In this document: positions 7,389 through 41,083 of the stretch, in pieces
Layout of the letters: each line of letters opens with the position of its first letter
Numbering within the stretch: position 1 is the stretch's first letter
From: an uncultured Bacilli bacterium
Lineage (GTDB): Bacteria; Bacillota_I; Bacilli_A; RF39; UBA660
Direction: 5' to 3'
Length of the DNA: 44,414 nucleotides
Assembly: GCA_947630415.1 (NCBI GenBank)
Contig: CANRHM010000001.1
Span: forward strand, 1 to 44,414
Translations under genes and position numbers: made by a program
Notes under the pieces: model-generated
Databases searched by the model: none
The model's input: the letters and a program-made list of their open reading frames with translations, nothing else
What the model was told of the DNA's origin: nothing

Positions 7389-8954
7389 TTAAGAGTTTAC
7401 ACTTGCTTTTGACAAGGAAGCATTAATCTCTTCCATTTTCTTATCTTTATCGATTCGCATGAAGATTGGTTTTGCTTCTTGTACTTCATAGGCATTATCT
7501 TCTTTATAAGTTAACGTATCGTCCGTAGTTCCTAATTGATTTAAGATTTCTTTGCTGGTATCTGGTAAGAAAGCTTCTAGTAAATTAGCACATACACGAA
7601 TAGATTCTAACAAATTGTATAATACAGTTGATAGACAATCTTTTTGACTTTCATCTTTAGCAAGTGCCCAAGGCGTGGTATCATCAATATATTTATTGCT
7701 GTTACGTAATTGGTTCATAATTTCTTCTAGTGCATTTCCTACTTCTAATTTATTCATTTTTTGATCGACTAAATTAGGAAGATTCTTAATATGATCAATA
7801 AAGTTGGCATCAAATTCAGTTTCTTGATTCGTACGACTTACCTTTCCATCAAAATATTTATGGGCCATCGAAATCGTTCTATTTACAAGGTTTCCTAAAA
7901 CATTAGCTAGATCACTATTGTAACGTTCAATGAGTAGATCATACGTAATGTTTCCATCGTTTGCAAAAGGCATCTCATGTAAAACATAATAACGAATAGC
8001 ATCAACGCCAAATAAATGAACCAAGTCATCGGCATACATAACATTACCTTTACTCTTACTCATTTTATCGTCTTGGAAAAGCATCCATGGATGACCAAAG
8101 ACTTGTTTTGGCAAAGGTTCTCCTAGAGCCATTAAAATAATAGGCCAATAAATAGTATGGAAACGAATAATATCTTTACCAATTAAGTGTAAGTCACAAG
8201 GCCACCACTTGTTGTACTCTGGACTACTTCCATCAACATCATAACCAATATTGGTAATATAGTTGGTTAGGGCATCAATCCAAACATAGACTACATGTTT
8301 TGGATCAAAATCCACGGGAATTCCCCAAGAGAAACTAGAACGTGAAACACATAAATCTTGAAGACCTGGTTTAATAAAGTTATTAATCATTTCATTTTTT
8401 CTAGATTCAGGTTGAATAAACTCTGGGTGCGATTCGATATAATCAATTAATTGGTCTTGGTATTTGGATAATTTAAAGAAATAAGCTTCTTCTTCGGCTT
8501 TATGAACTTCTCTTCCACAATCGGGACATTTTCCATCTACTAATTGACTTTCGGTAAAGAAAGATTCACAAGGGGTACAATATAGCCCTTTATAAGTTCC
8601 TTTATAGATATCTCCTTGTTCATAAAGTTTCTTAAAGATTTTTTGTACCTTTTTAACATGTTCAGGATCCGTTGTTCTTACAAAACGATCATAGCTCGTG
8701 TTCATAATATCCCAAATCGCTTTGATTTCACCTGCTACTTCATCGACATAAGCTTGAGGGGTAACACCTTTTTCTTTGGCTTTTAACTCAATTTTCTCAC
8801 CGTGTTCATCGGTTCCCGTTTGAAAATAAACTTCATATCCTTTTTTTCTTTTGTATCTTGCAATCGCATCTGCTAAAACAATCTCATAGGTATTTCCAAT
8901 ATGAGGTTTGGATGAAGTATATGCAATTGCCGTACTAATGTAAAATTTTTCCAT
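7389..8954 (-). CDS. metG: methionine--tRNA ligase (short form, no C-terminal tRNA-binding domain)
   Basis: HIGN (HIGH) motif, KMSKS motif, CxxC...CPDCG zinc knuckles. Preceded by a Met T-box. Confidence 0.95.
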   Translation of the reverse strand: MEKFYISTAIAYTSSKPHIGNTYEIVLADAIARYKRKKGYEVYFQTGTDEHGEKIELKAKEKGVTPQAYVDEVAGEIKAIWDIMNTSYDRFVRTTDPEHVKKVQKIFKKLYEQGDIYKGTYKGLYCTPCESFFTESQLVDGKCPDCGREVHKAEEEAYFFKLSKYQDQLIDYIESHPEFIQPESRKNEMINNFIKPGLQDLCVSRSSFSWGIPVDFDPKHVVYVWIDALTNYITNIGYDVDGSSPEYNKWWPCDLHLIGKDIIRFHTIYWPIILMALGEPLPKQVFGHPWMLFQDDKMSKSKGNVMYADDLVHLFGVDAIRYYVLHEMPFANDGNITYDLLIERYNSDLANVLGNLVNRTISMAHKYFDGKVSRTNQETEFDANFIDHIKNLPNLVDQKMNKLEVGNALEEIMNQLRNSNKYIDDTTPWALAKDESQKDCLSTVLYNLLESIRVCANLLEAFLPDTSKEILNQLGTTDDTLTYKEDNAYEVQEAKPIFMRIDKDKKMEEINASLSKASVNS

Positions 8955-8967
8955 TTCTTTTTCCTCC

Positions 8968-9210
8968 TAAAAAAAGATGACTTATTATGTTAAGGACGGA
9001 TCTTTTTCCGCGGTACCACCTTAATTTATAATAAATCATCTTATTATACACTTTCTAAAGTTAACGCCTATCTTACGTTTTCGCCTACCTATCGACGAAA
9101 AAGTTCCGAAGCCATATCCTACTTGAGTCATCTTTCCTTGCTTTCACCTAACCAAGGTCTCTTTCTTAAAGAATCAGTCACAGGACTCTTCATCAAAACT
9201 TTTGAATATG
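8968..9210 (-). promoter_or_regulatory. T-box leader riboswitch, methionine specifier (AUG)
   Basis: Minus strand carries TTGATGAAGAG (GA/K-turn region), GGTGAAAGC and the specifier loop GGAAAGATGAC (ATG at 9131-9129). It also has the T-box sequence AAGGTGGTACCGCG (9020-9009) and a terminator helix AAGATGATTTATTAT.../...ATAATAAGTCATCTT followed by T7. Confidence 0.85.
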
Positions 9211-9215
9211 GCTAG

Positions 9216-9244
9216 ATTATAACATAATTCAAATTATTGTTCAA
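9216..9244 (-). promoter_or_regulatory. sigma-A promoter of the T-box/metG transcript
   Basis: TTGAAC(9244-9239)-17 nt-TATAAT(9221-9216) with an upstream TG (extended -10). The -35 lies in the 3' end of spoVT. Confidence 0.55.
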
Positions 9245-9764
9245 GATGTTTCGATAAAAATTGCGTGATAATCGTAACCATGTGTTTTTCAGTATCGGTA
9301 ATATTTTTCTCTGGTTCATAAAGAATAACTTTTCCTACTGCATCTCCGTTTACTAGAATAGTTGATCCATAGAAGTATCCCTCTTCAAATAGTCCATCCG
9401 ATATTTCAAACTTTGTCTTAAGATGGGAATTTAATTCTTTCTTATCGACAATGTTCTCTTCTAAGGTTCTAGATAGACTTCTTCCTAAATATTTTTTCTT
9501 TAATGGAAGAGAGCAACCTAACACTTCATCTCGATCCGTAATAATAACGGAAGCATTTAATGATTGATATACAGCATCGGCCAAAGCTTGTGAAATGTCA
9601 TCCATATCGTTCATTGGTGAATACTTCTTTAAGGCAATCATATCCTTATCTACAAAAATTTCCAATGATTCCCCATCTCTGATTCGTAAACTTCTGCGTA
9701 TTTCTTTAGGAACGACGATTCTACCTAAATCGTCTATTCTTCTAACAACTCCGGTTGTTTTCAT
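9234..9764 (-). CDS. spoVT: AbrB/SpoVT-family transcriptional regulator (SpoVT-like, 176 aa)
   Basis: Start moved to MKTTGVVRRIDDLGRIVVPKEIRRSLRIRDGESLEIF (SpoVT/AbrB swapped-hairpin motif) with RBS GGAAAGTGGGGA. C-terminal ~120-aa GAF-like part. Lies next to mfd as in B. subtilis. Confidence 0.8.
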   Translation of the reverse strand: MKTTGVVRRIDDLGRIVVPKEIRRSLRIRDGESLEIFVDKDMIALKKYSPMNDMDDISQALADAVYQSLNASVIITDRDEVLGCSLPLKKKYLGRSLSRTLEENIVDKKELNSHLKTKFEISDGLFEEGYFYGSTILVNGDAVGKVILYEPEKNITDTEKHMVTIITQFLSKHLEQ

Positions 9765-9917
9765 AAAATCCCCACTTTCCTTACAATATCTAGTTTTCCA
9801 ACAAAAAGAATGTTTATACCTAGAATATATTTTTTTACTTTTTACTGCTTCATAAATATTATAAGCATTTTTTAGACGATTTTCTTTGGAAATATTTACC
9901 AATAGTTTACAAACGTT

Positions 9918-21598: not shown

Positions 21599-22051
21599 TT
21601 AATTTCGTTTTTTTTTAAAAAAATTAGACAAAAGAGATGCACACTCATTTTCGAGAATTCCACAAGTTATTTCTACTGCGGAATTAGCATCAACTTCAGT
21701 TAAAATTTTATGCACAATTTCTTTATTTTTATTATTTTTACTTTGAGTACCATAAGCAATTCGCTTAATCCGAGCCTGTTGTATAGCACTAGCACACATT
21801 GGACAAGGTTCTAATGTAACATATAATATACATTCATTAAGACGCCAATTATTTAATTTTCGTGAAGCCTTTTCAATACATATAAGTTCCGCATGTTTTA
21901 AAACTGATTTTTTAGTATCTTTTTTATTGTAAGCAGATGCAATAATTTTATCTTTATAAACAAGAACAGCCCCTACAGGAACTTCTTCTTTTTTTATTGC
22001 TTTTTTAGCTAAATTGAGTGCTTTATTCATATAAAATTCATCTTTGTTCAT
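21599..22051 (-). CDS. tadA: tRNA-specific adenosine deaminase
   Basis: HAELICIEKA and TLEPCPMCASAI deaminase zinc motifs. Confidence 0.9.
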   Translation of the reverse strand: MNKDEFYMNKALNLAKKAIKKEEVPVGAVLVYKDKIIASAYNKKDTKKSVLKHAELICIEKASRKLNNWRLNECILYVTLEPCPMCASAIQQARIKRIAYGTQSKNNKNKEIVHKILTEVDANSAVEITCGILENECASLLSNFFKKKRN

Positions 22052-22073
22052 ACATTATCACCTCAAAATAAAA

Positions 22074-22146
22074 GATGCACATGAGAATAAACTATTAAAG
22101 CTGCTATCTTCCGATCCTGACTTGGTTCTAGTCATCTCATTGCATC
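22074..22146 (-). ncRNA. ffs: small (4.5S-type) signal recognition particle RNA
   Basis: Minus strand reads GATGCAATGAGATGACTAGAACCAAGTCAGGATCGGAAGATAGCAGCTTTAATAGTTTATTCTCATGTGCATC. It forms a long hairpin (GATGCA/TGCATC, ATGAGA/TCTCAT). The domain IV signature is CCAAGUCAGGAUC-GGAA-GAUAGCAGC (compare E. coli CCAGGUCAGGUCCGGAAGGAAGCAGC). It is followed by TTTTATTTT, and a -10 box lies 7 nt upstream. Confidence 0.75.
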
Positions 22147-22152
22147 GATATT

Positions 22153-22181
22153 ATTGTAATCTATTTTTATTTTTTTTGCAA
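22153..22181 (-). promoter_or_regulatory. sigma-A promoter of the SRP RNA (and probably tadA)
   Basis: TTGCAA(22181-22176)-17 nt-TACAAT(22158-22153). Confidence 0.55.
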
Positions 22182-22191
22182 CTATATATTA

Positions 22192-22207
22192 TGTTTCACG
22201 TGAAACT
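22192..22207. other. parS site (ParB/Spo0J loading site), 15/16 match
   Basis: TGTTTCACGTGAAACT versus the palindromic parS TGTTTCACGTGAAACA. Confidence 0.75.
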
Positions 22208-22218
22208 TGTATATATTT

Positions 22219-22234
22219 TATTTCCCAGGAAATA
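22219..22234. other. NBS (Noc-binding site) variant, 15/16 match
   Basis: TATTTCCCAGGAAATA versus the B. subtilis NBS consensus TATTTCCCGGGAAATA. Confidence 0.65.
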
Positions 22235-22253
22235 TTTTTCATAAAATTTTTTT

Positions 22254-22269
22254 TATTTCCTAGGAAATA
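22254..22269. other. NBS (Noc-binding site) variant with a central TA, 14/16 match
   Basis: TATTTCCTAGGAAATA. The perfect palindrome extends to 18 bp (22253-22270). Confidence 0.6.
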
Positions 22270-22292
22270 ATTTTATAAAAGAAAGGCAAATT

Positions 22293-22308
22293 TATTTCCC
22301 GGGAAATA
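22293..22308. other. NBS (Noc-binding site), perfect 16/16
   Basis: TATTTCCCGGGAAATA. Confidence 0.75.
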
Positions 22309-22319
22309 TTTTTAAGTTA

Positions 22320-22335
22320 TGTTTCACGTGAAACA
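22320..22335. other. parS site, perfect 16/16
   Basis: TGTTTCACGTGAAACA. Confidence 0.85.
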
Positions 22336-22351
22336 ATATAAAAAGTATAAG

Positions 22352-22379
22352 AAAAGAAGTTTCACGTGAAACTTCTTTT
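22352..22379 (-). terminator. 28-bp perfect palindrome: gyrA terminator with an embedded parS core (14/16)
   Basis: AAAAGAAGTTTCAC|GTGAAACTTCTTTT starts 6 nt after the gyrA stop. It has an A-tract/stem/T-tract shape. Inner 16-mer AGTTTCACGTGAAACT (22358-22373). Confidence 0.6.
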
Positions 22380-22384
22380 AAATA

Positions 22385-25030
22385 TTATTCATCTTCTGGT
22401 ACTATTTCGTTTTCTTCAACTATAGATTCATTATCTTCTTCTGAATTTTCGTTATTTTCTTCGCGTGCCACAGATGCAACTGAAGCCACTTTTTGATCAT
22501 TCTTTAAATGAATTAAACGAACACCTTGGGTTGAGCGACGTAAAGTAGATACTTGATCAATTGGTAGTCGAATGACAATTCCACTATCGGTAATAATAAC
22601 TAAATCTTCTTCACCAGTAACAGCTTTTAAAGTAACAAGCATTCCATTCTTTTCAGTAACATTCAAAGCTTTAACACCTTTACTACCCCTATGTGTTAAA
22701 CGATAATCATCAATTGGTGTTTGTTTTCCATATCCATTTTCAGTAACAACTAAAACATTTTCATTAGCATAAACAATTTCGCCACCCACTACTTTTGCGG
22801 TACCTAAATCGATTCCACGAACACCGGAAGCAGATCTTCCCATAATTCGAACTTCAGATTCTTTAAATCGAACCATTCGACCATTAGAAGCACCAATAAT
22901 AATTTCATTATCACCTGTAGTCTTACCTACAGAAATTAATTCATCATCTTCTTTTAAAGTAATAGCAATTTTTCCACTTCGACGAATATTATCAAATTCA
23001 ACTAAATTTGTTCGCTTAACGACACCATTTCTAGTAATAAAGAATAAATATTTATAATCTTCTTCATTTGCTTTAATAGATAAAATTGAATTAATTTTTT
23101 CTTCTTTTTCCACAGGTAATAGATTGATAATTGGCAATCCTTTACTTTGTCTGCTAAATTCTGGAACCTCGTAACCTTTCATACGATAAACTTTACCTTT
23201 ATTACTGAAGAATAAGATATAGTCATGCGTTTCCATGTTGATCATTTTTTCAACGAAATCCTCTTCACTAGTAGCCATTCCTTTAACACCTACACCACCT
23301 CTATTTTGAGTACGATATTCATCTACTGATAGACGTTTAATGTATCCTTTATTAGTAAGTGTTATCAATGTATTTTCAACTGGAATAAGGGATTCATCCT
23401 CGATATAATCAACTGCTGTCATATCAATTTTGGTACGACGATCATCGCCATATTTCTTTTTAATTTCAAGCATTTCTTCTTTAATAATTTCAAGAACACG
23501 TTCAGGTTTAGCTAGAATATCTTTGTAATCGGCGATTTTGATTTGTAAATCTTCTAGTTCACTTTCAACTTTTCCACGTTCCAAACCAGTTAAACGACGA
23601 ATACGCATTTCAAGAATACTATTTGCTTGAATTTCATCTAAGCCAAAACGTTCTTGTAATTTAGCACGTGCTTCTTCATCCGTGTCAGCAGAACGCACAA
23701 TATGAACCACTTCATCGATATTATCTAAAGCAATTCGTAATCCTTCTAAAATGTGAACACGTTCTTCTGCTTTCCCTAAATCAAAACGAGTTCTTCTAAC
23801 AATAACTTCTTTTTGATGTTCAATATATTTAGAAATAATATCTTTTAATCCTAAAGTCTTTGGTGTTTGTCCATCCAAAACAAGGAAAATAATTCCATAA
23901 TTAACTTGGAAATTTGTATGTTTATATAAGTTATTTAAAACAACTTGTGGATTAGCATCCTTTTTTAAAGTAATCGTTATTTTGACACCATCTTTTAAAT
24001 CCGTATGGTAATCTGAAATACCTTCAATAACTTTATTGTGTACTAATTCAGCTACTTTATTTTTTAGTTCCATCGTATTAACACCATAAGGAACTTCATC
24101 GATAATAATATTACTGTGGCTTCCTGCATCTTCAATGGTTGCTTTACTACGGATAGTAATGCTTCCTCGACCAGTTTCATAAGCTTTCTTAATACCAGAA
24201 TTACCTAAAATAATTCCTCCTGTTGGAAAATCAGGTCCTTTAATATATTCCATTAAGCCTAAAGTATCGATATCTGGATTATCAATATACGCAACACATC
24301 CATCGATAACCTCAGATAAATTGTGAGGTGGAATATTGGTAGCCATACCAACAGCAATTCCCATAGAACCATTAACTAAAATGTTAGGAAATCTAGAAGG
24401 TAAAACCGTAGGTTCTTTCATAGTAACATCAAAGTTATCGTCCATATCAACGGTATCTTTATTGATATCTCTCAATAATTCCAAAGAAATCTTAGCAAGA
24501 CGAGATTCAGTATAACGCATTGCTGCGGCACCGTCTCCTTCGATATTACCGAAGTTACCATGTCCATCAATCAACATATAACGTTGGTTAAAATCTTGCG
24601 CTAAACGAACCATTGCTTCATAAATAGAACTATCACCATGTGGATGATAATGACCCATAACATAACCTACGGTCGTAGCAGATTTACGATGAGGTTTATC
24701 TGGTGTATAACCTGATTCATACATACTCCATAAAATACGACGATGAACTGGTTTTAATCCATCTCTTAAATCTGGTAAAGCACGCGATTTAATAACACTC
24801 ATGGAATATTCCATAAAAGATGTTTTTACTTCATCGACAATATTGTTGTGATCAAGTCGGTCTCTTTCATGAAAGTAACCACTAAAGTTAGAACTATTAG
24901 AAGACGCTAATATATTACTATCATTGGTTGCCTCTTCGTTTGTACTATCTAAAACAATGTCTTCTTCTATCGGTCCATCTTTTTCTTTAGCACGATCTAA
25001 TAATTCATCTAAATTATCTTTGTTATCCAT
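22385..25030 (-). CDS. gyrA: DNA gyrase subunit A
   Basis: 881 aa. ALPDLRDGLKPVHRRIL, the active-site region AAMRYTE, the GyrA box and beta-pinwheel repeats. Acidic N-terminal extension and acidic C-terminal tail. Confidence 0.95.
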   Translation of the reverse strand: MDNKDNLDELLDRAKEKDGPIEEDIVLDSTNEEATNDSNILASSNSSNFSGYFHERDRLDHNNIVDEVKTSFMEYSMSVIKSRALPDLRDGLKPVHRRILWSMYESGYTPDKPHRKSATTVGYVMGHYHPHGDSSIYEAMVRLAQDFNQRYMLIDGHGNFGNIEGDGAAAMRYTESRLAKISLELLRDINKDTVDMDDNFDVTMKEPTVLPSRFPNILVNGSMGIAVGMATNIPPHNLSEVIDGCVAYIDNPDIDTLGLMEYIKGPDFPTGGIILGNSGIKKAYETGRGSITIRSKATIEDAGSHSNIIIDEVPYGVNTMELKNKVAELVHNKVIEGISDYHTDLKDGVKITITLKKDANPQVVLNNLYKHTNFQVNYGIIFLVLDGQTPKTLGLKDIISKYIEHQKEVIVRRTRFDLGKAEERVHILEGLRIALDNIDEVVHIVRSADTDEEARAKLQERFGLDEIQANSILEMRIRRLTGLERGKVESELEDLQIKIADYKDILAKPERVLEIIKEEMLEIKKKYGDDRRTKIDMTAVDYIEDESLIPVENTLITLTNKGYIKRLSVDEYRTQNRGGVGVKGMATSEEDFVEKMINMETHDYILFFSNKGKVYRMKGYEVPEFSRQSKGLPIINLLPVEKEEKINSILSIKANEEDYKYLFFITRNGVVKRTNLVEFDNIRRSGKIAITLKEDDELISVGKTTGDNEIIIGASNGRMVRFKESEVRIMGRSASGVRGIDLGTAKVVGGEIVYANENVLVVTENGYGKQTPIDDYRLTHRGSKGVKALNVTEKNGMLVTLKAVTGEEDLVIITDSGIVIRLPIDQVSTLRRSTQGVRLIHLKNDQKVASVASVAREENNENSEEDNESIVEENEIVPEDE

Positions 25031-28202: not shown

Positions 28203-28658
28203 TTAGCCATTTTTTACTTTTTTTCGATGATTTAAAATTGATTCTAATAAAGTCGCTCTTAAAAATTGATTATTTAAAGAATAACTGGAGACATTTGTTT
28301 TAATAATTTTTCCATTTTTGAAATAGATTAGAGCCTTTTTTTGATTTTTTCCAATCTTTCTAAAATGTTTAAGGGATATCCAAATACAATTATCCAATAA
28401 AGGTGAATTGGTTGGAAAGAAAATAAGTCTTCTTGCCTCTTCTACTACGATAGGTAATTTGTATTCCGCATTTAATATAGCTTTAGACCCCATTACTCTC
28501 CCCTCATAACTACTTCCATAATACCTACAACTGTCATCCATAATCTCATAAGCAGACTTATCCACGATATATTCATCGTGAGTTTCGATAATACGTGACT
28601 TATTTTCAGATATACTAATAATAGCCAGTGTATTATCATTAATTTCATAATCAAACAT
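28203..28658 (-). CDS. comK: ComK-family competence transcription factor (151 aa)
   Basis: Start moved to MFDYEIN (RBS GGGGGAAAAG). SCRYYGSSYEGRVMGS, LIFFPTNSPLLDNCIWISL and FKNGKIIKTNVSSYSLNNQFLRATLL parallel B. subtilis ComK SCRFFGSSYAGRKAGT, IFLFPTLSSTRPQCGWIS and FSNGKTMELPISYNSFENQVYRTAWL (from memory). Confidence 0.65.
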   Translation of the reverse strand: MFDYEINDNTLAIISISENKSRIIETHDEYIVDKSAYEIMDDSCRYYGSSYEGRVMGSKAILNAEYKLPIVVEEARRLIFFPTNSPLLDNCIWISLKHFRKIGKNQKKALIYFKNGKIIKTNVSSYSLNNQFLRATLLESILNHRKKVKNG

Positions 28659-28757
28659 TTCTTTTCCCCCTAACTGCAAATTTTAAATTTGCGCCACCAG
28701 TTTATCAAATTTACTTGTCGAATTTGCTCTAATTTTGTCGAAGGATAAAAATTTTGT

Positions 28758-31486: not shown

Positions 31487-31675
31487 TGTGGAAAAAGAAA
31501 AGGAAAAAAATTAAAAAATTAAAATTCACAGGATATTCACCTGTTTTGCACAAAGTTATCCACTAATCTTATCTTTATTATATAAGGAAATGGTTGATTT
31601 TTCCACAGAATGTGTAAATTTGGTAATCAACATGGTGTATTTTGTTTTCCACAAGGCTGTGCAAAATGTGGATAA
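31487..31675. other. oriC left part: DnaA-box cluster upstream of dnaA
   Basis: TGTGGATAA perfect (31667-75). One-mismatch boxes: TGTGGAAAA (31487-95), TTATCCACT (31556-64), TTTTCCACA (31599-607) and TTTTCCACA (31645-53). Two-mismatch boxes: 31544-52 and 31658-66. Confidence 0.8.
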
Positions 31676-35275: not shown

Positions 35276-35291
35276 TATTTCCCGGGAAATA
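35276..35291. other. NBS (Noc-binding site), perfect 16/16 within a 24-bp palindrome
   Basis: TATTTCCCGGGAAATA. The palindrome AAATTATTTCCCGGGAAATAATTT spans 35272-35295 and overlaps the mnmE stop. Confidence 0.75.
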
Positions 35292-37951: not shown

Positions 37952-39304
37952 ATGGATATGGAGAAAGAAATTGTCGATTTATTAGTGGATGATATTATCC
38001 CAAACCGCTTTCAACCTCGTGAAGTTTTTGATGAAAAAGCTTTACAAGAATTAGCCGCATCCATAAAAGAACATGGGGTTATTCAACCGATTATTGTTCG
38101 TAAAATCAATGATAAGTATGAAATCATCGCAGGAGAGCGAAGATATAAAGCATCGATTATGGCTGGACTTAATAAAATTCCTGCAATCATCCGTAATTTA
38201 GATGATAAAGAAAGTTCTAAAGTTGCCTTACTTGAAAACTTACAAAGAAAAGATTTAAGTGCGATTGAAGAAGCAAGAACCTATCAAAAAATTCTAGACC
38301 TAGATAATATGACGCAAGAAGAATTAGGAAAAACAATGGGTAAGAGTCAAGCGGCTGTTGCTAATAAATTACGTTTACTTGCTTTACCAGATGAAGTTCA
38401 AGAAGCTTTATTAAATAATAAGATTTCAGAACGTCATGCAAGAAGTTTATTAAATGTAAGTGATAAAGAAAAGCAAATTGAGTTATTGAATAAAATTATT
38501 GAAAATAAAATGACGGTTCGTGATTTAGAAACTGAAATAAAAGCACTTAATGGAAATCCAACGGAGCCTACATTAATTATTGAAGAACCACCTCAAGCTA
38601 AAGAAGCAAGTTCTTTCATAACTATTCCAGATATGAATCCAGAATTAAAAACGGATAATCCAAGTACTCCTTTAGTGGATGAAATAAAAACTACCTTACC
38701 AGAGGCACCTGTTGAAACTAATCCTAGTAGGACTGTAGATTCATTAGTAGCACCAACCACTCAAAGTGAAGCATCTCCAGTAGAAAGTAACCATGAAGCA
38801 ACTTCTAATTTCCGGTTTATTCCTACTTTTGAAGAGGATAAAGAAGTAGAAGTTGAATCTGCACCTGCACCTAAAGTAGAAACGACTCCTAACTTTGATT
38901 TCTTAGCCAATACAACTATCCAATCGAGTGATGATTCTACAGAGGGAGGTACTACTTCTAGTGTTACACCTTCGTTACCACCAAAAGATGATATCGAAAG
39001 TCTAGAAGATGAACCTAAAAATCCTGAACCATATCAACCATTTACCAATACAGCAAACCTACTTAACGAATTTCATATGAAAAATGAAAATAAAGAGGTA
39101 GAACCTATTTCATCAACGATTCAAACACCTATCTCATTTGAAGCTGAAACACCAGTAAATGAAATTCCAAATTTAAGAACTGCTATCAATACCATTCGTG
39201 ATTTAGCTAAAAAATTAGAAGATAACGGATTTGTAGTCAACCTTGATGAAATGGATTTTGAAAATAAATATCAAATTAATATCAGTATTGATAAAAATAA
39301 ATAA
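37952..39304 (+). CDS. noc: Noc-like ParB-family protein with a ~200-aa low-complexity insertion (450 aa)
   Basis: DIIPNRFQPR, GERRYKAS (CTP-binding box) and an HTH GKSQAAVANKLRLL...ISERHARSL like B. subtilis Noc (GKGQSTIANKLRLL...ITERHARAL, from memory). C-terminal AINTIRDLAKKLEDNGFVVNLDEMDFENKYQINISI. Position rsmG-noc-parA-parB is as in Bacillus. Confidence 0.8.
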   Translation: MDMEKEIVDLLVDDIIPNRFQPREVFDEKALQELAASIKEHGVIQPIIVRKINDKYEIIAGERRYKASIMAGLNKIPAIIRNLDDKESSKVALLENLQRKDLSAIEEARTYQKILDLDNMTQEELGKTMGKSQAAVANKLRLLALPDEVQEALLNNKISERHARSLLNVSDKEKQIELLNKIIENKMTVRDLETEIKALNGNPTEPTLIIEEPPQAKEASSFITIPDMNPELKTDNPSTPLVDEIKTTLPEAPVETNPSRTVDSLVAPTTQSEASPVESNHEATSNFRFIPTFEEDKEVEVESAPAPKVETTPNFDFLANTTIQSSDDSTEGGTTSSVTPSLPPKDDIESLEDEPKNPEPYQPFTNTANLLNEFHMKNENKEVEPISSTIQTPISFEAETPVNEIPNLRTAINTIRDLAKKLEDNGFVVNLDEMDFENKYQINISIDKNK

Positions 39305-39420: not shown

Positions 39421-40209
39421 ATGGGAAAGATAATAGCATTAGTTAATCAAAAAGGTGGCGTAGGAAAAACAACAACAAGCATTAATCTTTCTGCATCACT
39501 TGCTCTATTAGGTAAAAAAGTTTTGATGATCGATTTAGATCCTCAAGGAAATGCTACTACGGGAGTAGGAATTAACAAAGGTGATATTACCAAAAGCGTT
39601 TATGATGTTCTTACTCAAAAATGTCCCATTCAAGAAGCTATTAAGAAAACAAAATACAAAAATTTATCGATTTTACCAGCCACTATAAATTTAGCTGGAG
39701 TCGATATTGAATTATTGGAAAAAAGCAAAGAAGAGCCTGGTTTTGCCAAAGGAATGCCTTTAAAAAATGCTCTTCAACCAGTTATCGATGAATATAATTA
39801 TATTATTATTGATTGTCCACCTTCATTAGGACTCATTACAACAAATGCTCTAACCGCTGCGAACTCGGTTATTATTCCGGTACAATGTGAATTCTTTGCA
39901 CTAGAAGGAATTACCCAATTATTGAAAACGATTATGTTAGCACAAAAGAATCTTAATCCTAACTTAAATATTGAAGGGGTTCTATTAACAATGTTAGATT
40001 CTAGAACAAATCTAGGAATCGAAGTAGTAGAAGAAATAAGAAAATATTTTAAAGAACGTGTTTACAATACGATTATTCCAAGATTGGTTCGCTTAACCGA
40101 AGCCCCATCGCATGGAAAACCGATTATTGCATATGATCCAAAAAGTAGAGGATCAGAAGCGTATCTCAATTTAGCAAAGGAAGTGATTGAACGAAATGGA
40201 AACATCTAA
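39421..40209 (+). CDS. parA: ParA/Soj chromosome-partitioning ATPase
   Basis: Deviant Walker A NQKGGVGKTTT, DLDPQGN and IIIDCPPSL. Confidence 0.95.
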   Translation: MGKIIALVNQKGGVGKTTTSINLSASLALLGKKVLMIDLDPQGNATTGVGINKGDITKSVYDVLTQKCPIQEAIKKTKYKNLSILPATINLAGVDIELLEKSKEEPGFAKGMPLKNALQPVIDEYNYIIIDCPPSLGLITTNALTAANSVIIPVQCEFFALEGITQLLKTIMLAQKNLNPNLNIEGVLLTMLDSRTNLGIEVVEEIRKYFKERVYNTIIPRLVRLTEAPSHGKPIIAYDPKSRGSEAYLNLAKEVIERNGNI

Positions 40210-41083
40210 AAGACGTGCCTTAGGAAGAGGTCTTGAAGAATTATTCAATAATGAACCGATTGACTATAATCAAATCGAAGAACGTATTATTACTTCAACT
40301 CCTAAGGATGAAATTGTCGAAATCAAATTAAGTGAATTAAGAAGTAATCCTTATCAGCCAAGAAAAGTCTTTGATGAAAAAGCCCTTCAAGAATTAGCAG
40401 CATCAATCAAAGAGCATGGTGTATTCCAACCAATTATTGCTAAGAAAAGTATCAAAGGATACGAAATTATTGCAGGTGAACGAAGAGTAAAAGCATCACG
40501 CCTTGCTGGAAAAGAAACCATTCCTGCTATTATTCGTGATTTTACGGATGAAGAAATGATGGAGATTGCCCTTCTTGAAAATCTTCAAAGAGAAAACTTA
40601 AATGCCATGGAAGAAGCAACCGCTTATCGTAAATTATTACAAGAATTAAATATTACTCAAGATGAATTAGCCTCTCGTATTGGAAAAAGTAGAAGTCATA
40701 TTACCAATATGTTAGGTTTATTAACCCTTCCAGAAGAAGTCAAAAACATGCTTTTAGAAGATAAAATTTCGATGAGTCACGCTCGTGTATTAAGTAAAAT
40801 CGAAGATAGTAACAAAGTAATTAGTCTTGCTAATCGTGTTTATAATGAAGGATTAAACGTTCGTATCTTAGAAGATTTGGCTTCTTCTAACGACTTAAAA
40901 AAGAAAAATAAAATCGTAAGACATCATGTTCATGAAAATGAATACCATTATTTAGAAGAACAACTAACCGAAAAACTAGGAACTAAAGTAAAAATCAAAA
41001 ACAATCATATGATGATTAGTTTTGCTAATACCAACGATTTAAATCGTATTTTAGAAATTATGGGTATGACGTACGACGAATAA
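40196..41083 (+). CDS. parB: ParB/Spo0J chromosome-partitioning protein
   Basis: Start taken at METSKRRALGRGLEELF (ParA-interaction motif). NPYQPRKVF, GERRVKAS and an HTH GKSRSHITNMLGLL (Arg as in parS-specific ParB). Confidence 0.9.
   Translation: METSKRRALGRGLEELFNNEPIDYNQIEERIITSTPKDEIVEIKLSELRSNPYQPRKVFDEKALQELAASIKEHGVFQPIIAKKSIKGYEIIAGERRVKASRLAGKETIPAIIRDFTDEEMMEIALLENLQRENLNAMEEATAYRKLLQELNITQDELASRIGKSRSHITNMLGLLTLPEEVKNMLLEDKISMSHARVLSKIEDSNKVISLANRVYNEGLNVRILEDLASSNDLKKKNKIVRHHVHENEYHYLEEQLTEKLGTKVKIKNNHMMISFANTNDLNRILEIMGMTYDE

Follow-up and report, generated by a model that had tools for sequence, protein, structure and literature searches.

Interleaved parS and NBS palindromes beside gyrA suggest a two-protein centromere in uncultured gut Bacilli

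The gyrA-ffs spacer of an uncultured Bacilli bacterium (22192-22379) carries three perfect 14-bp parS cores and three NBS-type palindromes within 190 bp. This spacer is interpreted here, with a probability of about 0.6, as the chromosome centromere, in the form of a composite platform on which ParB and Noc, two paralogous CTP-dependent clamps, are loaded. Mixed arrays at the same spot in more than 100 related species suggest an undescribed two-protein centromere. Positions refer to the window, i.e. the whole stretch of 44,414 nucleotides that was analysed (contig CANRHM010000001.1).

Sites of the array and immediate flanks

parS sites were assigned by the 16-bp inverted repeat TGTTNCACGTGAAACA, which is matched by three window sites, each with a perfect 14-bp core. 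With up to two mismatches allowed, this core was found exactly three times in 44.4 kb (0.11 expected; three copies were reached in 0 of 100 shuffles), and all parS of the window fall in the gyrA-ffs spacer. The NBS core, at the same tolerance, was found four times in 44.4 kb versus 0.29 expected, the fourth copy being an isolated site between mnmE and mnmG. Two of the window NBS are perfect (22293-22308 and 35276-35291) and two are centre variants. Together, parS and NBS palindromes amount to seven in 44 kb. The array and its surroundings are composed as follows.

22058..22156, minus strand: small SRP RNA (ffs), Rfam match
22192..22207: parS-1, TGTTTCACGTGAAACT, 15/16 to the consensus, 10 bp upstream (in the sense of ffs transcription) of the -35 hexamer of ffs, unchanged in the nearest relative L077
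22219..22234: NBS-1, TATTTCCCAGGAAATA, CA-centred variant, as are 13% of clade NBS, CCCGGG in L077
22254..22269: NBS-2, TATTTCCTAGGAAATA, TA centre, degenerate in L077
22293..22308: NBS-3, TATTTCCCGGGAAATA, perfect 16/16
22320..22335: parS-2, TGTTTCACGTGAAACA, perfect 16/16, unchanged in L077
22358..22373: parS-3, AGTTTCACGTGAAACT, inside a perfect 28-bp palindrome (22352..22379)
22385..25030, minus strand: gyrA, transcribed towards the array
31487..31675: oriC DnaA-box cluster upstream of dnaA, at the GC-skew minimum
35276..35291 (core 35277-35290): perfect NBS standing alone in the 38 bp between mnmE and mnmG, within a 24-bp extended palindrome (AAATTATTTCCCGGGAAATAATTT) at the gene end

Centre-to-centre distances along the array are 27, 35, 39, 27 and 38 bp. 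A tandem-repeat origin of the window array was ruled out, as no repeat was detected by TRF in 22000-22500; the array nevertheless carries three NBS in 90 bp. A promoter-like sequence for ffs (TTGCAA-17-TACAAT, 22181-22153) reaches slightly into the start of the Rfam match, and the exact transcription start is therefore uncertain. The palindrome around parS-3 (12-bp stem, 4-nt loop and T-rich tail) lies 6 bp past the gyrA stop, is predicted to be terminator-like and was detected by terminator scan on both strands. Since it is missing from L077, it is, on this comparison, a recent addition. Because the TA centre of NBS-2 was found in none of 345 clade NBS (consensus ATTATTTCCCGGGAAATAAT) and the site is degenerate in L077, NBS-2 is probably weak or decayed. 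The layout of L077 reads P27 N40 n40 N27 P; between it and the window, sites were retained and spacers diverged. The mnmE-mnmG NBS has an equivalent position in L123, L124 and L125.

The six sites had been proposed by a sequence-only reading of the window, and their coordinates, sequences and centre distances proved exact to the base. The proposed location of the array, with the gyrA stop on one side and the SRP-RNA promoter on the other, agrees with the gene, RNA and promoter-like coordinates given above, and the terminator scan bears out that the third parS sits in a perfect 28-bp terminator-like palindrome. The GC-skew minimum near 31 kb and the DnaA boxes at 31487-31675 place the array about 9.2 kb from oriC, where about 9 kb had been estimated. 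Two proposals stood in part. Three NBS-type palindromes are present as claimed, but NBS-2 is degenerate, so that three good NBS are not. The symmetric layout holds for the distances in the window but not across the clade, where mirror symmetry was otherwise found in L077 alone.

ParB, ParA and the Noc orthologue

The window contains the gene order rsmG-noc-parA-parB, with the following products.

37952..39304, plus strand: Noc orthologue, 450 aa, with N-terminal CTP-binding domain, HTH, disordered linker and C-terminal dimerisation domain
39421..40209, plus strand: ParA (Soj) ATPase, AAA_31 3.8e-70
40187..41083, plus strand: ParB (Spo0J), likely start ATG 40196, R173/M179/T184/S201, GERR and ENLQR, N-terminal KRRALGRGLEELF peptide

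ParB matches the Pfam domains ParB_N, HTH_ParB and ParB_C, and in ParB and Noc alike both CTP motifs (GERR, ENLQR) are intact. At the four ParB/Noc specificity positions defined by Jalal et al. 2020 (PMC7383237), ParB reads RMTS, i.e. R173 with small residues at the remaining positions, and is thus parS-type. NBS-type specificity consists of Q173, K at 179 and/or 184, and R201 (PMC7383237); the Noc orthologue, with Q173/K179/A184/R201 (QKAR) in its HTH, is of this type. Q173, K179 and R201 were read in nearly all of the closest 120 homologues (for P0012, P0015 and P0097 the recognition helix was not captured by the regular expression used), and also in distant relatives; residue 184 is variable among homologues. 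The earlier claim that both cognate paralogues are encoded in the window is thus upheld by specificity residues matching parS (ParB) and NBS (Noc). This Noc subfamily and the array were found on one contig here and in CANQKN010000003.1.

Best PDB matches of the window Noc are Noc structures. PDB 8qa8, listed here under RK2 KorB/KorA, also appears among the structure matches of this search. Noc depends on its membrane-targeting helix alpha1 and on alpha2 to bind the membrane and to exert nucleoid occlusion (PMC8429893, PMC4331003). The window protein is without the N-terminal amphipathic helix: it starts 16 aa before PNRFQPR, its alignment begins at residue 26-27 of the Noc structures, and no N-terminal helix is present in its structure model. 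The missing N-terminus is common to all of the closest 120 homologues. The acidic disordered linker comprises about 205 aa in the window Noc, and linker length in the subfamily ranges from 50 to 270 aa. The window Noc scores 299.5 bits against TIGR04285 (nucleoid_noc), below the curated cut-off of 315, its match being broken into two stretches by the long linker; ParB scores 230. Noc had been called atypical in the earlier reading, in keeping with the absent helix, the long linker and the score below cut-off. By hydrophobic moment, SNFRFIPTF in the linker is on a par with the N-terminus of B. subtilis Noc, in a scan that does not discriminate. Such a short aromatic linker motif could replace the membrane helix.

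Conservation of the array

When 185,579 species genomes were scanned for parS adjacent to NBS, at least 120 loci were found. At least 118 loci share one place, gyrA-array-ffs-tadA-dnaX (118 of the 120 matches listed), and their hosts are uncultured AT-rich gut Bacilli. Across the listed same-place loci GyrA identity is 53-98%, and the parS/NBS mixture is retained throughout. ffs precedes tadA in 14/14 related loci. Some relatives have tandem arrays with up to 13 units, in which parS and NBS alternate strictly (over 9-13 units). TRF detected 13.2 copies of an 83-bp unit in L103; L175 likewise has units repeated head to tail, every unit carrying a ParB-family site, and units of long arrays are 95% identical. 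Many arrays open with an NBS directly past the gyrA stop.

An independent sample of lineages was picked by dnaA (n = 29). A parS cluster follows gyrA in 29/29 of these lineages, with NBS embedded in 18/29. Embedded NBS are not obligatory, since about 11 of the 29 lineages have parS-only clusters; among the 8 of these with coverage, 6 have an NBS about 2 kb off, inside dnaX. Apparent 'NBS-only' and 'no site' lineages were an artefact of an over-strict parS pattern, and become mixed or parS-only with GTT[TC]CACGTG[AG]AAC. No link between embedded NBS and a neighbouring parAB operon was evident. Beyond parS variants (GTTCCACGTG) and occasional DnaA boxes, no third shared motif was found in the arrays. 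The conservation check proposed with the sequence-only reading was thus answered by a mixed array at the gyrA/ffs locus in at least 118 species genomes and in 18/29 independent lineages. That reading also knew of no such compact composite platform, and no published description of a mixed ParB/Noc site array was found in a literature search with thin coverage of subscription journals.

Enrichment and helical phasing

Exact parS numbered 105 inside the gyrA-dnaX zone, versus 0 in the related origin DNA beyond it (566 kb). NBS density was 1.36 per kb in the zone versus 0.032 per kb outside (43-fold, p = 4e-45), a ratio that was rejected as a stand-alone measure as it partly reflects a general intergenic preference. 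With intergenic DNA only, NBS density was 1.79 per kb in the zone versus 0.31 per kb elsewhere, an enrichment of about 6-fold that is still significant (p = 6e-7). Two or more NBS were present in 10/23 zone spacers and in no other spacer, and the non-zone spacers of at least 300 bp (10.9 kb summed) contain one NBS altogether. Isolated NBS are dispersed at about 1 per 17-31 kb (origin-region DNA only). They are about 6-fold commoner in intergenic than in coding DNA, and about half of them sit inside genes.

parS-NBS spacing peaks at about 26, 36, 47, 57 and 68 bp, corresponding to half-integral helical turns. Its phasing (R = 0.26) was matched by 0/5000 null sets after related spacers had been merged, for mainly pattern-selected loci with kinship partly controlled. 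In the dnaA-chosen set alone, the same phase was found but was not significant (n = 42, p = 0.22). parS-parS spacing showed no phasing (p = 0.47). The half-turn phasing of parS and NBS argues for simultaneous, stereospecific occupancy over mutually exclusive binding.

Interpretation

In the proposed composite centromere, ParB would nucleate at the three parS sites and the Noc orthologue at the interleaved NBS, of which two are good and one is degenerate. Adjacent parS and NBS are spaced by approximately half-integral helical turns (27 bp in the window), so that both dimers could sit on neighbouring sites together, on opposite DNA faces. After CTP-driven closure, ParB and Noc clamps would both slide into shared origin-proximal DNA, and a mixed ParB/Noc nucleoprotein zone would result instead of separate domains. 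Noc of this lineage has lost the N-terminal membrane-targeting helix and acquired a long linker that is acidic and disordered and contains aromatic motifs; its role at the centromere is therefore probably other than that of a Bacillus-type membrane tether relying on an N-terminal helix. More likely, Noc at the centromere serves to organise the origin or to bring in a partner. Noc may also retain a nucleoid-wide role unrelated to the centromere, because NBS are dispersed as well.

The two types of sites could share a location without sharing a function. The spacer would then be a plain parS centromere, with ParB and Noc acting independently, and NBS would have accumulated as Noc sites favour AT-rich intergenic DNA, as few long spacers exist near oriC and as duplication of parS units carries NBS along. 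Such an account would accommodate the preference of isolated NBS for intergenic DNA, their dispersal, the parS-only lineages and the long arrays, whose near-identical units mark them as young tandem repeats; NBS in the latter could be passengers of parS amplification. We nevertheless regard it as unlikely, if well within consideration, as NBS in the zone are six times as dense as in other intergenic DNA and long spacers elsewhere are nearly free of them. Moreover, helical phasing is seen for parS-NBS but not for parS-parS spacing, the window array is non-tandem yet has its NBS closely packed, and the mixture has been retained over the full range of GyrA identity. Alternatively, Noc held at NBS could serve as a roadblock or competitor by which ParB clamps from flanking parS are confined or metered, or the reverse; this could shield the ffs promoter or determine how large the partition complex becomes. 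The NBS block of the window is indeed flanked by two parS, with parS-1 abutting the ffs promoter, the frequent NBS just past the gyrA stop would fit, and ParB-family clamps would, from the clamp model, be unable to pass each other on DNA (PMC8429893, PMC7053999). However, in B. subtilis NBS-bound Noc is converted by CTP to a sliding clamp (PMC8429893) and is therefore a poor static roadblock. Strict alternation through 9-13 units resembles mixing and not bounding, and half-turn phasing favours simultaneous occupancy, which makes antagonism or insulation of this kind quite improbable.

The palindromes could instead have a structural or transcriptional function, be it as intrinsic terminators, as REP-like repeats or as an ffs/tadA operator, and be like parS and NBS only incidentally; this is very improbable. 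They match two experimentally defined motifs at 14/14 and 12/12 positions, with the cognate paralogues encoded nearby; seven are present in 44 kb, and no further enriched motif accompanies them save the parS variants and occasional DnaA boxes. Isolated NBS within genes, about half of the total, cannot be terminators. What speaks for structural elements is the bidirectional terminator score of the parS-3 palindrome, the 24-bp palindrome at the gene end between mnmE and mnmG, and the many arrays that begin right past the gyrA stop.

Within the composite-centromere interpretation, a more specific model can be sketched, which is speculative and as a whole rather unlikely. Across the large clade of gut Bacilli, ParB and Noc, on opposite faces of the DNA, would form a stereospecific two-paralogue centromere complex, in which the CTP clamps are loaded together in interleaved order, like a train. 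Noc, devoid of the N-terminal membrane helix, would have been turned from a dispersed membrane tether into a centromere/origin adaptor that works through its long acidic linker and an aromatic F-x-F-[IV]-P-x-F-acidic motif, with the machinery of division or segregation as a possible contact.

ParB and Noc are a textbook case of a duplicated DNA-binding clamp that diverged in site specificity and in job (segregation versus division control), and have so far been studied as spatially separate systems. Being widely conserved and holding the two kinds of site in a fixed rotational relation, the array would provide a natural test bed for two CTP clamps on one DNA, be it for co-sliding, blocking or heterotypic contacts, and the 190-bp fragment is small enough for in-vitro work. 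It would also define the centromere of a very abundant group of uncultured gut Bacilli. It further brings a Noc subfamily that is without the N-terminal membrane switch, and it may reveal either an intermediate of the ParB/Noc duplication or an alternative outcome.

Comparison with known systems

As in B. subtilis Spo0J(ParB)/parS, the sites are 16-bp palindromes in origin-proximal position and parA-parB lies beside rsmG-noc; the window ParB has the same CTP motifs, GERR and ENLQR, and an LGRGL-type peptide at its N-terminus. In B. subtilis, parS are individual sites spread across the origin region (PMC7333895), whereas the parS detected in the window all lie in one spacer of at most 200 bp after gyrA, none of them inside parB, and are intermixed with sites of the paralogue. 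The NBS core ATTTCCCGGGAAAT, the residues Q173/K179/R201, synteny and, within origin-region DNA, dispersed NBS are as in Noc/NBS of B. subtilis and S. aureus. Unlike Noc of these species, the window Noc is without the N-terminal 26 residues (alpha1, alpha2), belongs to a subfamily with a linker of 50-270 aa and falls below the TIGR04285 cut-off; clade NBS also differ in being concentrated 43-fold at the predicted centromere, a value that includes their general intergenic preference.

Clustered chromosomal parS of Caulobacter, Corynebacterium and Myxococcus are present in several copies near oriC and form one centromere for a single ParB. Several close parS near oriC are found here as well, but sites of a second paralogue are interleaved and helically phased with them. 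The F-plasmid sopC is a tandem-repeat centromere, which is resembled by L103 (13 units of 83 bp) and L175 with head-to-tail units that each contain a ParB-family site. In contrast to sopC, units of these relatives carry two different sites for two paralogues, the location is chromosomal and the window array is non-tandem. In RK2 KorB/KorA, a ParB-family clamp is governed by a second protein at an adjacent site, with transcriptional silencing as output. Both systems combine a CTP-dependent ParB-family clamp with a second DNA-binding protein at closely spaced sites; KorA, however, is unrelated to ParB, whereas the partner here would be a paralogous clamp and the context a chromosomal centromere.

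Sites of the array and their surroundings

Direct reading of 21900-22800 found all six palindromes (three parS, predicted sites of ParB, and three NBS, predicted sites of Noc) where the sequence-only reading had placed them within 22192-22379. The 28-bp palindrome around parS-3, which to that reading had looked like the gyrA terminator, scores as such.

22058-22156, minus strand: small SRP RNA gene (ffs), on the other flank of the array from gyrA
22181-22153: promoter-like TTGCAA-17-TACAAT, its start 10 bp from parS-1
22192-22207: parS-1, first site in order
22219-22234: NBS-1, between parS-1 and NBS-2
22254-22269: NBS-2, the middle NBS, degenerate
22293-22308: NBS-3, between NBS-2 and parS-2
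22320-22335: parS-2, after NBS-3
22358-22373: parS-3, within the perfect 28-bp palindrome
22385-25030, minus strand: gyrA, its stop adjoining the array
31487-31675: DnaA-box cluster, assigned with the GC-skew minimum to oriC

By these two origin markers the array lies ~9.2 kb from oriC, close to the 9 kb first estimated. With up to two mismatches, the 14-bp parS core occurred 3 times in 44.4 kb (0.11 expected) and the NBS core 4 times (0.29 expected). The array is not a tandem repeat. The fourth NBS-core match is perfect (35277-35290, site 35276-35291) and lies in the short mnmE-mnmG spacer, ~3.7 kb from oriC, as part of a 20-24-bp palindrome that three related genomes have in the same place (loci L123, 7208; L124, 7275; L125, 118).

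Elsewhere in the window, the gene of a ComK-family protein (28203-28679, minus strand; Pfam 2.6e-41) separates dnaN from recF, a position kept in L123 and L124. A T-box leader (8989-9205, minus strand) lies upstream of metG (7389-8954). A SpoVT-like regulator (9234-9902, minus strand) is encoded downstream of mfd, a hint that the organism may sporulate.

Conservation at the gyrA locus

The sequence-only reading had proposed checking related genomes for the array. The pattern GTTTCACGTGAAAC-N(5-35)-ATTTCCNNGGAAAT was scanned against 185,579 species-representative genomes and gave at least 120 loci, with roughly ten matches expected by chance on our own estimate. Conservation was borne out by tblastn with window proteins as queries: 118 of the 120 listed loci occupy one syntenic position, downstream of gyrA and ahead of tadA-dnaX, at GyrA identities to the window of 53% to 98%. 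The SRP RNA gene was immediately 5' of tadA in all 14 loci tested, with the array usually between gyrA and ffs. The relatives come from the guts of animals and humans and carry the labels uncultured Bacilli, Erysipelotrichaceae, Tenericutes or Mycoplasma, which would fit the reduced-genome orders RF39, RFN20 and ML615J-28 (treated in PMC10868615).

Copy number and layout varied widely among the listed loci, from parS-NBS-parS triplets to strictly alternating arrays. L103, from a complete circular 1.31-Mb MAG, carries 13.2 copies (95% identity) of an 83-bp unit with one parS and one NBS each; L068, L067, L040 and L049 have similar arrays, and L175 alternates over nine units. The nearest relative, L077 (GyrA 98%), reads P27 N40 n40 N27 P (P, parS; N, NBS; n, degenerate NBS; digits, centre-to-centre bp). 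It shares parS-1 and parS-2 unchanged with the window, whose spacers differ from its own by divergence; both arrays have a degenerate middle NBS, and parS-3 is absent from that of L077. The central CpG of NBS-1 and NBS-3 differs in state between the window (22219-22308) and L077 (2574-2708). Such CG to CA/TG switching in either direction recurs in close relatives, 13% of clade NBS having a CA or TG centre, and suggests dyad tolerance or, as CCCGGG contains CCGG, CpG deamination.

Loci L137 and L141 (contigs ERZ780226 and OGOV01000045) represent one lineage with a rearranged origin region, gyrB-gyrA lying beside mnmE. There, too, the gyrA stop is followed by a parS-43-NBS pair, so that the sites move together with the gyrA end.

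Enrichment in a dnaA-based sample

Because the pattern search pre-selects mixed arrays, a second set of relatives was chosen through the similarity of their DnaA proteins (50-74% identity), with flanks of 10 kb. Across 32 distinct loci, exact sites numbered 105 parS and 49 NBS in the gyrA-dnaX zone (36 kb), versus 0 parS and 18 NBS in the other 566 kb, a 43-fold NBS enrichment (p = 4e-45). As NBS generally favour intergenic DNA, like was compared with like: intergenic NBS density was 1.79 per kb in the zone versus 0.31 elsewhere (p = 6e-7). At least two NBS per spacer were found in 10 of 23 zone spacers and in none of the others; the 23 non-zone spacers of at least 300 bp held one NBS in all.

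With the common parS variant GTT[TC]CACGTG[AG]AAC allowed, a parS cluster directly followed gyrA in all 29 distinct lineages, and NBS were embedded in it in 18. Where the gyrA-proximal cluster was parS only and coverage sufficed, a conserved NBS lay inside dnaX, ~2 kb off, in 6/8 lineages (L144, 20801; L152, 20554; L156, 21124; L165, 20554; L170, 20718; L179, 21207). Some dnaX-internal sites are two overlapping NBS, 15 bp apart. In the pattern-hit loci (875 kb), 389 parS were clustered versus 12 isolated; for NBS the counts were 297 and 48, about one isolated site per 17 kb.

Perfect DnaA boxes (TTATCCACA) occurred inside the parS/NBS arrays of 15 of 151 related loci, the window's not among them, which hints that DnaA-box clusters share the spacer with these arrays. 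In many more distant relatives (L139, L144-L152, L165, L170, L179, L180, L186, L189, L193 and L196-L198) the Noc-like gene is beside rsmG, no parA or parB was found downstream of it within the 10-kb flank, and parS clusters after gyrA are kept.

Helical phasing of the spacings

Distances between neighbouring parS and NBS centres peaked at ~26, 36, 47, 57 and 68 bp, i.e. (n + about 0.45) turns. Both such distances in the window are 27 bp, within the first peak.

Periodicity of centre-to-centre distances between neighbouring sites
parS-NBS, 19-75 bp, similar spacers merged: n = 222; R 0.26 at 11 bp; reached by 0 of 5000 jittered sets
parS-NBS, 18-130 bp: n = 288; R 0.22 at 10.5 bp, phase 4.9 bp; p < 3e-4
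parS-NBS, dnaA-sampled set alone: n = 42; R 0.19, phase 5.0 bp; p = 0.22
parS-parS: n = 129; R 0.11; p = 0.47
NBS-NBS: n = 29; R 0.275; p = 0.31

Alternating arrays mostly repeat near integral turns (62-63, 75-76, 83-84 bp), which would line up every ParB along one face of the DNA and every Noc along the opposite face. With genome relatedness only partly controlled, the phasing is suggestive of simultaneous, stereospecific ParB/Noc occupancy.

The two proteins and their predicted site specificity

Both paralogues had been predicted in the window and are encoded there, the Noc-like protein (ParB_N and HTH_ParB domains) at 37952-39304 and ParB at 40187-41083, in the canonical order rsmG-noc-parA-parB. 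Against the Noc model TIGR04285 the former scored 299.5 bits, below the cut-off of 315, versus 230 for the neighbouring ParB; its best solved-structure match was Noc (212 bits; Spo0J, 174 bits). According to Jalal et al. (PMC7383237), site specificity is set by four positions: Q173 recognises the adenine and R201 the cytosine that are specific to NBS, and a single lysine at 179 or 184 is enough. The Noc-like protein has Q173, K179, A184 and R201, and the window's ParB has R, M, T and S, the parS type, with the CTP motifs GERR and ENLQR and an N-terminal KRRALGRGLEELF peptide kept. From these residues, parS and NBS would each have a plausible dedicated reader (ParB and the Noc-like protein, respectively) encoded 16-19 kb away. 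The Noc subfamily and the array share one contig in the window and in CANQKN010000003.1.

The Noc had also been called atypical, and alignment and an AlphaFold model agree: the N-terminal membrane helix is absent and a long linker is present. Only 16 residues precede the PNRFQPR motif, and the alignment with Noc structures from Bacillus and Geobacillus begins at their residue 26-27, so that both the 10-aa membrane-targeting helix, alpha1, and alpha2 are missing. Both are needed for membrane binding and nucleoid occlusion by Noc (PMC8429893, PMC4331003). An upstream start was excluded on two grounds: the ORF finder calls the earliest start codon following a stop, and a GAGG Shine-Dalgarno precedes the ATG. 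The short acidic N-terminus was common to all of the best 120 homologues. Q173, K179 and R201 were readable in nearly all of these, the exceptions being three sequences that a regular expression could not read, and recurred in more distant copies from dnaA-centred loci; position 184 was variable.

An acidic, disordered linker of 50-270 aa in the family (~205 aa in the window) joins the DNA-binding and C-terminal domains; modelled pLDDT was <50 for the linker, >90 and ~90 for the two domains. It carries an aromatic-acidic motif, FRFIPTFEED / SNFRFIPTFEED (aa 285-296; 38804-38839), with recurrent counterparts in the homologues P0002-P0120 (YKF[IV]PxF[DE]E, FKFLDDFE or NKFFNFLEDE). This could be a partner-binding or a relocated membrane motif; its 'IPTF' is reminiscent of the FtsZ C-terminal peptide. 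In a hydrophobic-moment scan its score was similar to that of the membrane helix of B. subtilis Noc, but the scan does not discriminate between the two readings.

A proposed composite centromere and its alternatives

The best-supported reading of the array is a composite centromere for ParB and its Noc-like paralogue. The sole parS cluster of the origin region would also be where the Noc paralogue preferentially loads, and the two clamps, once closed with CTP, would come to occupy one and the same stretch of DNA near the origin. Since the Noc-like protein is without the N-terminal membrane switch, its role at the centromere is probably not the Bacillus-type tether. Noc has precedents both for acting with ParB, since in B. 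subtilis it works together with Spo0J to block Z rings over nucleoids that are not yet replicated (PMC6852036), and for acting at the origin, since in S. aureus it restrains the initiation of replication (PMC5540599).

Passive co-location, with NBS hitch-hiking in tandem duplications, is unlikely but still carries real weight, since embedded NBS are missing from a third of the lineages and the long arrays consist of young repeats; enrichment of NBS over other spacers, the non-repeat array of the window and the parS-NBS phasing argue against it. Antagonism or roadblocking between Noc and ParB is distinctly less probable, and that the palindromes do not bind protein is very improbable.

The components, ParB/parS and Noc/NBS, are textbook. 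What appears new, as read from genomes, is that sites for two paralogous clamps are intermixed and in phase at a single centromere locus, conserved in at least 118 species, and that there is a Noc subfamily without the N-terminal membrane helix. The sequence-only reading knew of no description of the arrangement, and a full-text literature search, with many subscription papers outside its scope and a mention there possible, likewise returned no description of a mixed ParB/Noc array. It bears on the ParB/CTP-switch and bacterial cell-cycle fields and is testable with the 190-bp fragment and the two proteins.

Compared with Noc of Bacillus and Geobacillus, the window's Noc-like protein is without alpha1 and alpha2. 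In B. subtilis, ParB and Noc have both been shown to close as clamps with CTP and to spread (PMC7053999, PMC8429893), whereas for the window proteins we infer this clamp behaviour.
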